Assembly (NCBI GenBank): GCA_038237075.1
Contig: JBBRZC010000001.1
Coordinates: 2,959 to 66,958 of the forward strand
Direction: 5' to 3'
Source of the DNA: Actinomycetales bacterium
Lineage (GTDB): Bacteria; Actinomycetota; Actinomycetes; Actinomycetales; Dermatophilaceae
Length of the DNA: 64,000 nt
Shown: positions 37,734 to 59,547 of the stretch, piece by piece
How positions within the stretch are numbered: position 1 is the stretch's first letter
Layout of the letters: every line of letters starts with the position of its first letter
Translations under genes and position numbers: made by a program
Notes under the pieces: model-generated
The model's input: the letters and a program-made list of their open reading frames with translations, nothing else
Database searches by the model: none
What the model was told of the DNA's origin: nothing

Positions 37734-37762
37734 TATGCTTAGATATCTTGATGTCAAGATAG
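37734..37762 (+). promoter_or_regulatory. acnA promoter: -10 TATGCT followed by the palindromic operator TATCTTGA-TG-TCAAGATA
   Basis: TATGCT 37734-37739; perfect 8-bp arms at 37744-37751 and 37754-37761; RBS gaagggag before GTG 37785. Confidence 0.7.
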
Positions 37763-37784
37763 TTTCGCGATGAAGGGAGCCCTC

Positions 37785-40586
<2,802 letters not shown>

Positions 40587-57166: not shown

Positions 57167-57814
57167 CTACGCCGGGAGCACGCGGAGGACCGCGGTGGCG
57201 CGGTCGCGGCAGCGTTGCACGATCTCGGCGTTCGTCTGGTCGGTGCCACCGGCCCAGGCCACCGCCTGCTCATGGCTCATCCCGAACCCTTCGTGCCGGG
57301 CGACGAGCCGGTGGATCCGGGTCGCCGGGTCGATCTCGAGGAACCAGGACTCGTCGAGGAGCGGGAGCACGGCCGACCACGAGCCGAGGTCGGACAGCAG
57401 GTAGTTGCCCTCGGTGACCACGAGGGGCACCTCGCGTGCCACGGGGAGCGCCGACCCGATGGGCTCGTCGACGTCCCGGTCGAAGTCGGGTGCGTAGACC
57501 ACGGATGTGGCCCGGCTCCGCAGCCGGCGCAGGAGGTCGACGTAGCCGTCCGCGTCGAAGGTGTCCCACGCGCCCTTGCGGTCGCGCCGACCCAGGCTGT
57601 GCAGCACCGTGTTGGCGTAGTGGAAGCCGTCCATCGGGACGAGCGCCGCGACATCAGGGCCGAGGGCGGTGACCAGCTGTCGGGCCACGGTGGACTTGCC
57701 GGCTCCCGGGGAGCCGGTCACGCCGAGGACCTGCCGCCCGCCCTGCTGCGCGAGCGCCCGCGCCCTCGCGACCAGCTCGGCGAGGGTCACGGGCTCGGCG
57801 GGGCGGTCCTCCAT
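57167..57814 (-). CDS. P-loop nucleoside/pantothenate kinase-like protein
   Basis: GSPGAGKST, MDGFH, GAWDTFD, TEGNYLL. Confidence 0.88.
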   Translation of the reverse strand: MEDRPAEPVTLAELVARARALAQQGGRQVLGVTGSPGAGKSTVARQLVTALGPDVAALVPMDGFHYANTVLHSLGRRDRKGAWDTFDADGYVDLLRRLRSRATSVVYAPDFDRDVDEPIGSALPVAREVPLVVTEGNYLLSDLGSWSAVLPLLDESWFLEIDPATRIHRLVARHEGFGMSHEQAVAWAGGTDQTNAEIVQRCRDRATAVLRVLPA

Positions 57815-57825
57815 GTCTCAGGGAT

Positions 57826-57866
57826 ATCAGATGCCGGAGAGATCAGATGCCAGAGAGATCAGATGT
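57826..57866 (+). repeat. 16-bp tandem repeat (about 2.6 copies) duplicating the murA stop region
   Basis: atcagatgccggagag / atcagatgccagagag / atcagatgt. Confidence 0.85.
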
Positions 57867-59394
57867 CGCGGAAGACCTCGATGGTCGCGCCGAGGGCGTT
57901 GAGCCGGTCGGCGAGGTCCTCGTAGCCACGGTTGATGACGTAGACGTTGCGCAGCACCGAGGTGCCGGGCGCGGCCAGCATGGCGAGGAGGACGACGACG
58001 CCGGGACGCAGCGCCGGCGGGCACATGACCTCGGCGGCGCGCCACCTGGTCGGCCCCTCGATGAGCACCCGGTGCGGGTCGAGGAGCTGCACCTTGGCGC
58101 CGAGCTTGGTCAGCTCGGTGAGGTAGATGGCCCGGTTGTCGTAGACCCAGTCGTGCAGCATCGTCGTGCCCTCGGCCATCGCCCCGATGAGGGCGAAGAA
58201 GGGGAGGTTGTCGATGTTGAGGCCGGGGAAGGGGAGCGGGTGGATCTTGTCGATCGGCGCGGTCAGCGGTCCGGGGATGGTCGTGAGGTCGACGAGCCGG
58301 GTCTTGCCGTTGGCGGACATGTACTCCGGGGTGAGGTCGTACTTCATGCCCATGCCTTCGAGGGTGGCGAGCTCGATCTCCATGAACTCGATGGGGACCC
58401 GGCGGATGGTGATCGACGAGCCGGTGACGACGGCCGCGGCCAGCAGGCTCATCGCCTCGATGGGGTCCTCCGAGGGGAAGTACTCCACGTCGACGTCGAT
58501 CGTGCCCACCCCGTGGACGGTCAGCGTGGTGGTGCCGATGCCCTCGATCCGCACGCCGAGCTTGACGAGGAAGAAGCAGAGGTCCTGGACCATGTAGTTC
58601 GGGCTCGCGTTGCGGATCACCGTGACGCCCTCGTGCCGCGCCGCGGCGAGCAGGACGTTCTCGGTGACCGTGTCGCCGCGCTCGGTGAGCACGATGGGCC
58701 GCTGCGAGCTGCGGCTCGGGTCGCGCACCGCCTCGTAGAAGCCGTGCGTCGCCGTGACGTCGAGGCCGAAGTGGCGCAGGGCGGCCATGTGCGGCTCGAC
58801 GGTCCGGGTGCCGAGGTCGCAGCCGCCGGCATAGGGCAGCCGGAAGGAGGGGTGGTCGTGGAGGAGCGGCCCGAGGAACATGAGCACGGTGCGGGTGCGC
58901 CGCGCGGCCTCGACGTCGATCCCTTCGAGGTCGAGGACGGCGGGTGGGGTGATCTCGAGGTCGCTGCTGTCGGGCAGCCAGCGGGTACGGACACCGATCG
59001 AGCTGAGGACCTCGATGATCCGGTTGACCTCCTCGATCCGGGCGAGCTGGCGCAGCGTGGTGCGCCCGCGGTTGAGCAGGGACGCGCAGAGCAGGGCGAC
59101 TGCGGCGTTCTTCGACGTCTTGACGTCGATCGCGCCGGTGAGCTGGGTGCCGCCGACGATGCGCAGGTGCTGCGGGCCGGAGTGGCCGAGCGAGACGAAC
59201 TCCGAGTCGAGGCTCGCGCCGATGCGGGCCAGCGTCTCCAGGCTGAGGTTCTGCTGGCCCTGCTCGATGCGCACCACGGCGCTCTGGCTGGTGCCCAGCG
59301 AACGGGCCAGCTCTGCCTGGGTCAGACCCTTGTGACGGCGTGCGTCGCGGATCAGGGATCCGATGCGCACCAGGTAGGTATCAGTGACGGTCAT
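57859..59394 (-). CDS. murA: XRE-type HTH fused to UDP-N-acetylglucosamine 1-carboxyvinyltransferase
   Basis: N-terminal IRDARRHKGLTQAELARSLGTSQSAVVRIEQG; MurA motifs KNAA, GGCDLGTR (active Cys), DPIEA, INRGYE. Confidence 0.92.
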   Translation of the reverse strand: MTVTDTYLVRIGSLIRDARRHKGLTQAELARSLGTSQSAVVRIEQGQQNLSLETLARIGASLDSEFVSLGHSGPQHLRIVGGTQLTGAIDVKTSKNAAVALLCASLLNRGRTTLRQLARIEEVNRIIEVLSSIGVRTRWLPDSSDLEITPPAVLDLEGIDVEAARRTRTVLMFLGPLLHDHPSFRLPYAGGCDLGTRTVEPHMAALRHFGLDVTATHGFYEAVRDPSRSSQRPIVLTERGDTVTENVLLAAARHEGVTVIRNASPNYMVQDLCFFLVKLGVRIEGIGTTTLTVHGVGTIDVDVEYFPSEDPIEAMSLLAAAVVTGSSITIRRVPIEFMEIELATLEGMGMKYDLTPEYMSANGKTRLVDLTTIPGPLTAPIDKIHPLPFPGLNIDNLPFFALIGAMAEGTTMLHDWVYDNRAIYLTELTKLGAKVQLLDPHRVLIEGPTRWRAAEVMCPPALRPGVVVLLAMLAAPGTSVLRNVYVINRGYEDLADRLNALGATIEVFRDI

Positions 59395-59400
59395 ATCCCG

Positions 59401-59423
59401 AGGATATCTCACATATGAGATAT
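59401..59423 (-). promoter_or_regulatory. Leaderless -10 (TATCCT) overlapped by the 20-bp palindrome ATATCTCA-CATA-TGAGATAT
   Basis: Perfect 8-bp arms 59404-59411 and 59416-59423; -10 is 6 nt upstream of ATG 59394. Confidence 0.75.
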
Positions 59424-59489
59424 GCCGGGGCAACGGCTCCTCGCGGCGCGCCGCGGGCGGGGTGGCGAGCGTGCCCCCGAGACAAAGGA

Positions 59490-59527
59490 CGAGGTATGCC
59501 GCGAAGGCGAGCTCGCGGCATACCTCG
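59490..59527. terminator. Hairpin formed by an inverted pair of CGGCATAC octamers downstream of fadB
   Basis: cgaggtatgccgcga-aggcgagc-tcgcggcatacctcg, perfect 15-bp arms, 20 bp past the stop at 59548. Confidence 0.8.
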
Positions 59528-59547
59528 CCGTTCTGGGGGGTTCCCGC

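Follow-up and report, generated by a model that had tools for sequence, protein, structure and literature searches.

The DNA window analyzed here is a 64,000-nucleotide stretch from a Dermatophilaceae genome (Actinomycetales bacterium, assembly GCA_038237075.1, contig JBBRZC010000001.1, positions 2,959 to 66,958). It carries a gene in which a helix-turn-helix (HTH) DNA-binding domain of the XRE type is joined to the enolpyruvyl transferase MurA. MurA catalyzes the first step committed to peptidoglycan synthesis and is the target of fosfomycin. The fusion is likely a bifunctional protein, namely an active MurA whose HTH represses the leaderless promoter of the fusion gene. In the proposed mechanism, the HTH would bind a 20-bp palindrome as a dimer and, once bound, would cover the -10 element of the fusion's own promoter and repress the fusion gene, an arrangement expected to give homeostatic control of the first committed peptidoglycan step. 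Negative autoregulation is well supported by comparison across genomes, and from the evidence set out below we infer that the protein binds DNA, represses instead of activating, is active as an enzyme and dimerizes.

Domain architecture of the HTH-MurA fusion

The coding sequence of the fusion occupies window positions 57859..59394 on the minus strand, stop codon included, and specifies 511 amino acids from the ATG at 59394. This start is backed by the orthologue alignment and by an in-frame stop codon within the palindrome of Streptomyces loci. Starts at an upstream TTG (59433) or GTG (59412) were rejected, as the upstream frame and its spacing vary among orthologues.

An initial sequence-only reading of this DNA had claimed that an HTH precedes MurA within one protein, and the Pfam matches bear this out. 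HTH_3 (PF01381) matches residues 15-59 with 46.1 bits, above the gathering score of 23, and is followed by EPSP_synthase (PF00275) at residues 81-498, with 149.7 bits, an E-value of 1.4e-43 and coverage of profile positions 3-417 of 417. Combined with the helices of an AlphaFold model, the former match delimits an XRE/Cro-C1 HTH domain at residues ~7-66 (59197..59376, minus strand) with the recognition helix TSQSAVVRIE. A short linker at residues ~67-75 (VSLGHSGPQ; 59170..59196, minus strand), kept in sequence among orthologues and flexible in the model, leads to the MurA domain of ~435 residues (residues 76-511; 57862..59169, minus strand). This assignment is based on PF00275, NCBIfam and PDB matches; the fusion scores 321.7 bits against the MurA subfamily model NF006873 (cut-off 297), and its best hits among PDB structures are MurA chains throughout (E = 2e-52).

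The same reading had stated that the MurA part keeps the KN pair, the active-loop Cys and the NID Asp, and all three are seen, as K95 N96, C192 within GGCDLGTR, and D395. The codon of C192 (58819..58821, minus strand) corresponds, by alignment to solved MurA chains, to Cys115 of E. coli MurA, the site of the fosfomycin and phosphoenolpyruvate (PEP) adducts. In E. coli numbering, K22, N23, R91, C115, R120, D305, R331, R371 and R397 are present in the fusion and invariant across 80 orthologues.

A palindrome over a putative leaderless promoter

The proposed operator, recovered by window and genome scans and by conservation among orthologues, is a 20-bp AT-rich palindrome, ATATCTCA-TATG-TGAGATAT, located ten nucleotides upstream of the fusion ATG at 59404..59423 (unstranded; 59423..59404 as read on the minus strand). 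It had been described as perfect, which holds for its 8-nt arms and not for its center: TATG is not self-complementary, so that 18 of the 20 positions are symmetric. The palindrome is the sole match in the window even when 3 mismatches are allowed, and 100 shuffles gave 0 matches. Its 6+6 core, ATCTCA-N4-TGAGAT, occurs once in the 3.42-Mb, 72% G+C genome, against 0.0085 occurrences expected.

A -10-like hexamer, TATCCT (TANNNT; 59401..59406, minus strand), was read by eye. Its first three bases lie within the right arm of the palindrome, in agreement with the overlap noted earlier, and it ends 7 nt before the ATG (59392..59394, minus strand), which is also the predicted transcription start of a leaderless mRNA; no Shine-Dalgarno sequence precedes this ATG. 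On this reading the palindrome spans -29 to -10 of the predicted promoter. The -10 and start assignments are supported because the Streptomyces coelicolor orthologue of the fusion, SCO5998, is listed with leaderless transcripts (Jeong et al. 2016, Supplementary Data 2). The earlier claim of a leaderless promoter thus stands as far as -10 spacing and the missing Shine-Dalgarno sequence go; the start itself has been measured only for the S. coelicolor orthologue, and in the source genome it is a putative one.

Upstream, a terminator-like hairpin (59488..59529, minus strand), consisting of an 18-pair stem followed by a T-rich tail, lies 65 nt from the palindrome. Because this hairpin closes the upstream fadB-like gene, the promoter of the fusion must fall in the ~90 nt that hold the palindrome.

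Conservation of the palindrome and its covariation with the recognition helix

Orthologues of the fusion were collected by a scan of species-representative genomes, yielding 80 loci, or 81 with the window included. These loci come from Lapillicoccus, Terrabacter, Nostocoides, Knoellia, Serinicoccus, Streptomyces, Kitasatospora, Actinacidiphila and Nonomuraea, and the proteins are 74-90% identical to the fusion. The palindrome is kept at the same distance in 80 of the 81 loci, and the absence upstream of orthologues that the sequence-only reading had named as counter-evidence was not seen. Over the 12 core positions, 57 loci match exactly, 9 carry one mismatch and 14 carry two; in the large majority, the distance from the end of the palindrome to the start codon is 10-12 nt. 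Windows taken from these loci as controls mostly show 5-7 mismatches; the 28 with 2 mismatches are accounted for by a pair of recurring look-alikes, located in the HTH coding sequence and at the aconitase gene acnA. Upstream information content peaks at the palindrome and at the last T of the -10 element and nowhere else, and TAnnnT at the -10 position is conserved in orthologues. No such palindrome was found upstream of the canonical murA of the source genome or of two HTH-less relatives in the MurA clade of the fusion.

The site and the domain predicted to read it have also changed together. Nostocoides japonicum and two Terrabacter genomes have the half-sites AACTCA/TGAGTT instead of ATCTCA/TGAGAT, and the same three genomes, and no others, show SQGA in the recognition helix, a segment that is otherwise invariant as SQSA. 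Such a joint change of half-site and helix is what direct readout of the palindrome by the HTH predicts.

Evidence that the fusion is probably a working MurA

A survey of MurA occurrence covered 81 genomes from the GTDB family of the window, where the HTH was verified in the loci of the orthologue scan and the remaining matches were classed by score and frame length. Of the 81, 76 have a fusion-type match, scoring 292-322 bits in open frames of 469-675 aa, and only 25 have a canonical MurA that passes the cut-off. In ~52 of the 81 the fusion-type protein is the sole MurA homologue, and five closed genomes, 99-100% complete, hold only AroA and the fusion-type protein as members of PF00275. Because peptidoglycan synthesis needs MurA, the fusion-type protein must be an active enzyme in these sole-MurA genomes. 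The fusion in the window is 83-90% identical to the family proteins that stand as sole MurA, and from these genomes and the invariant residues we infer that it is very probably a working MurA enzyme as well. In one 100% complete family genome (G048:C1:1261840-1263365), the sole MurA-type gene appears to be broken, close to residue 385, into two frames that overlap, reflecting either a frameshift or an assembly error.

The source genome is among the minority that also encode a canonical MurA, the second copy whose presence the sequence-only reading had proposed to check. It lies outside the window on contig 11 (G000:C11:29340-30590; L001:1495-2778), scores 490 bits, above the cut-off of the MurA equivalog model TIGR01072, and carries Asp in place of Cys115 (PGGDAIGSR). 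MurA with Asp for Cys115, known from Mycobacterium tuberculosis, is insensitive to fosfomycin. The phylogenetic tree groups all canonical MurA proteins in one clade (100/100 support) that leaves out the fusion and its HTH-less relatives, and the fusion is 30-36% identical to the canonical proteins. Across a phylum-wide sample of 251 genomes, full-length fusion-type matches were restricted to the family of the window, one Streptomyces-like family (5/5 genomes) and two further genomes; the remaining genomes gave canonical-type matches only, and four unpublished genomes (G085, G132, G172 and G204) enter only this last count.

Catalytically dead HTH-MurA-like relatives

More distant relatives with the same architecture have lost catalytic residues. 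One of them, P0142 (L095:4001-5503), is a 500-aa HTH-MurA-like protein that is 37% identical to the fusion and lacks C115, R120, R371 and R397, and its recognition helix is nearly the same as that of the fusion. Its gene is divergent from an intact murA (438 aa)-murB operon and lies upstream of ddl and a Mur ligase gene; a palindrome, ATATCA-TATA-TGATAT (L095:3973-3988), is located between a TTGACA element and the P0142 ATG. By these features, P0142 looks like a dead, dedicated regulator of mur genes. The persistence of dead relatives beside murA-murB, ddl and Mur ligase genes suggests that a MurA fold can act as a sensor and nothing else.

Structural models and points against the proposed mechanism

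The AlphaFold monomer, with a mean predicted local distance difference test (pLDDT) score of 92 and a predicted template modeling (pTM) score of 0.83, consists of a four-helix HTH, a flexible linker and the MurA body. The HTH helices, at residues 3-21, 26-33, 37-44 and 52-61, have pLDDT values of ~90. Prediction of two copies (residues 10-509) yielded a symmetric homodimer with an interface score (ipSAE) of 0.62, against 0.00 for the highest-scoring of three controls; at least 94% of contacts recur in all three runs, and pLDDT in the partner is at least 87. Of proteins solved as homodimers, 20 of 30 attained the mark applied, compared with 1 of 23 solved as single chains, counts that are rough given that an alignment of our own was used. 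The predicted interface lies on the cleft face, with contacts around residues 195-200, 235-239, 339-347, 381-391 and 438-442; it includes G195-R197, which belong to the catalytic loop, and the 381-391 segment beside D395.

Several observations weigh against an active MurA that represses its own gene. On the enzymatic side, the fusion falls below the cut-off of TIGR01072 (304.5 against 392.7 bits), and the equivalent of E. coli D369 is Ala in 80/80 orthologues, within the motif CPPALRP. The HTH-less relatives in the MurA clade of the fusion carry the same Ala in CPPALRP; in canonical MurA, Asp369 is conserved beside L370 and R371. On the structural side, linker residues 67-72 have pLDDT below 50, the HTH has no defined docking on the MurA domain, and the HTH domains lie outside the confident dimer interface. 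Because many interface residues are conserved in all MurA proteins, the dimer score may also mirror remembered crystal packing of solved MurA structures. As to the promoter, a scan for an E. coli-type sigma-70 consensus found none, a result that is uninformative for a high-G+C actinobacterium; two loci (L011 and L013) have degenerate palindromes, and the covariation in Terrabacter and Nostocoides probably represents a single evolutionary event.

Possible coupling of repression to ligand binding

The sequence-only reading had gone beyond simple autorepression and proposed a trigger enzyme whose DNA binding depends on substrate occupancy. In such a scheme, the closed, ligand-bound MurA, carrying UDP-N-acetylglucosamine (UDP-GlcNAc) and PEP or the feedback complex of UDP-N-acetylmuramic acid (UDP-MurNAc) with the Cys-PEP adduct, would dimerize and repress, and the open, empty form would not. 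MurA passes from an open to a closed form in a large conformational change, and its binding of UDP-MurNAc is tight. The scheme gains from the predicted interface, which takes in G195-R197 and the residues next to D395, from the retention of Cys115 in 80/80 fusions compared with Asp in the canonical paralogue of the source genome, and from the dead relatives that persist beside cell-wall genes with a similar palindrome. However, plain concentration-dependent autorepression explains every observation, the dimer model is ligand-free and open to the doubt about crystal contacts raised above, and conservation in the interface hardly exceeds the background of the domain (19/33 residues invariant, against 49%). 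We therefore treat ligand-gated repression as a tentative proposal, with the odds somewhat against it.

A broader version can be outlined, and we put it forward as a more doubtful speculation still. MurA would act as catalyst and sensor at once, its closed state dimerizing through the cleft face and setting two HTH heads on the operator, so that the cell would read its peptidoglycan precursor pool at the first committed enzyme and adjust synthesis of this enzyme to match. After duplication, some lineages would keep a dead copy purely as a regulator of murA-murB, and in Streptomyces the switch would gate the burst of MurA2, the orthologue considered below, that BldM-WhiI activates in sporulation.

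Search for further targets of the HTH

The whole source genome was scanned for ATCTCA-N4-TGAGAT with up to 2 mismatches. The only exact match genome-wide is the promoter of the fusion itself. Two one-mismatch sites were seen against 0.48 expected, and neither was retained as a target. The site at C2:15007, within long open frames, was rejected as a chance match. The other, ATCTCACGCATGAGAA (G000:C107:7548-7563; L084:1549-1564), was likewise judged to be chance, having no AT-rich flanks; it lies outside the window and overlaps the ATG of an AlaA-like aminotransferase gene. A near-site at +139 within the HTH coding region, which recurs in orthologues, is explained by the conserved QN(I/L)SLE codons.

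A further look-alike lies in the window before acnA (37770..40586, plus strand). This 8+2+8 palindrome, TATCTTGA-TG-TCAAGATA (37743-37766), has the same register as the murA operator, is placed ~20 nt before the likely GTG start, and is kept ahead of acnA in five more Dermatophilaceae loci; in 41 Streptomyces-type loci it recurs as TATCTCGATGTCGAGATA, 110-135 nt upstream of acnA and beside murA2. It was rejected as a second target on two grounds. The palindrome is retained in a family genome (G046) that is without the fusion, and it is unchanged in Terrabacter and Nostocoides despite their changed murA operator and recognition helix. The acnA look-alike is clearly independent of HTH-MurA and served by another regulator. 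Because the operator site is unique in the genome, the circuit in the source genome would control only the fusion gene.

This outcome bears on two further alternatives. In the first, the fusion of the source genome would be a regulator or sensor only, with catalysis left to the Asp-type canonical MurA on contig 11. A canonical enzyme above the equivalog cut-off is indeed available, the fusion is under that cut-off and has Ala for D369, and dead HTH-MurA-like relatives exist elsewhere. Yet all other catalytic residues are invariant, most family genomes, closed ones included, have a protein 83-90% identical to the fusion as their only MurA, and the sole operator-like site is at the fusion's own promoter, so that a pure regulator would regulate only itself. 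A division of labor of this kind is improbable.

In the second, the HTH would activate the promoter, or the palindrome would belong to another protein while the HTH binds elsewhere. The acnA look-alike offers a precedent within the same window, being attributed to another regulator. Against this, a site at -29 to -10 that shares 3 nt with the -10 element occupies the classic position of a repressor; it accompanies the HTH, is absent from murA genes without the HTH and changes with the recognition helix, and the genome holds no other candidate site for the HTH. We consider this account equally improbable.

The Streptomyces orthologue is MurA2

The Streptomyces orthologue of the fusion can be equated with MurA2 (SCO5998 / sven5810 / vnz_28735; 75% identity) because four features agree: the size of SCO5998 (a 1530-nt gene encoding 509 aa), its divergence from the aconitase gene SCO5999, a layout shared by the examined Streptomyces loci, the presence of only one other MurA in Streptomyces genomes besides murA2, and the position of the BldM-WhiI motif. 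MurA2 has the same palindrome as the fusion in the window. The organism of the window differs in having neither the BldM-WhiI motif nor the adjacent aconitase gene, acnA lying ~17 kb away.

A BldM-WhiI footprint on the murA2 promoter, with the motif TGnnCCGnnCGGGTGA, has been published, as have a SigB-dependent promoter further upstream of SCO5998 and a predicted DmdR1 site for murA2. Among the Streptomyces-type loci (L021-L083), 26 of 61 carry the BldM-WhiI group II motif in reverse-complement form, TCACCCGnnCGG, ~30 nt upstream of the palindrome; in these 26 loci, an activator site and the putative auto-operator stand side by side on one leaderless promoter. Our literature search found no paper naming the HTH on MurA or MurA2, or the palindrome, and MurA2 is treated there as a plain second MurA. 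The earlier statement that no regulation had been worked out needs amending with respect to the BldM-WhiI and SigB inputs, and it stands for the role of the HTH and the palindrome, which the literature searched does not describe.

That the palindrome is an RNA hairpin in a 5' leader transcribed from an upstream promoter, and not a DNA operator, is very improbable: symmetric changes in both arms would also be expected of an RNA stem, and the SigB-dependent promoter could supply such a leader, but the S. coelicolor orthologue is listed as leaderless, a terminator lies 65 nt upstream of the palindrome in the window, several orthologues have non-complementary arms (ATCTCA with TGATCT) that a stem would not tolerate, and the stem would comprise only 8 AT-rich pairs.

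Neighboring features

Downstream of the fusion, a 44-nt spacer separates it from a P-loop kinase-like gene (57167..57814, minus strand). A 16-nt tandem repeat of 2.5 copies with 95% match (57826-57865) crosses both the fusion stop codon and this spacer.

Comparison with known systems

The HTH-MurA fusion is already annotated in databases. New here are its standing as sole MurA in most Dermatophilaceae, the Asp-type paralogue of the source genome, the identity with Streptomyces MurA2, the exclusion of the acnA look-alike as a target, and a homodimer model that passes its controls. In Firmicutes the level of MurA is known to be under the control of proteolysis, and in mycobacteria under that of CwlM. 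Transcriptional self-control of MurA by a built-in DNA-binding domain was not found described in our literature search. Given a fusion that is the sole MurA in most Dermatophilaceae, its identity with MurA2 and a single exact operator, the question is easy to test; murA2 has already been placed in developmental and stress regulons and is available in genetically tractable strains. Ligand-dependent binding, if true, would add a cell-wall example to a small set of enzyme-repressors, and would explain why the fosfomycin-sensitive Cys has been kept in this clade when canonical paralogues in actinobacteria can have Asp at this position.

That set of trigger enzymes includes BirA, the E. coli biotin protein ligase and repressor of the bio operon, together with NadR and PutA. 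Like these proteins, the fusion combines an N-terminal DNA-binding domain and a biosynthetic enzyme, presumed active in its case, in one polypeptide, with an operator overlapping the promoter of a gene in the same pathway and with binding that requires dimerization, a property predicted for the fusion. Unlike BirA, it pairs an XRE/Cro-C1 HTH with MurA, and its sole predicted target is its own gene; BirA needs biotinyl-AMP as co-repressor. With canonical MurA, both the E. coli and Enterobacter cloacae enzymes and that of M. tuberculosis with Asp for Cys115, it shares the fold and the catalytic residues, differing in its N-terminal HTH, the Ala of CPPALRP at the D369 position and a longer insertion around residues 355-392. 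The Cro-C1 proteins of phages 434 and lambda (PF01381) belong to the same HTH family and likewise have a palindromic operator of 16-20 bp over the -10 element at their own promoter. In contrast to them, the fusion carries a complete, conserved enzyme where a C-terminal dimerization or sensor domain usually sits.

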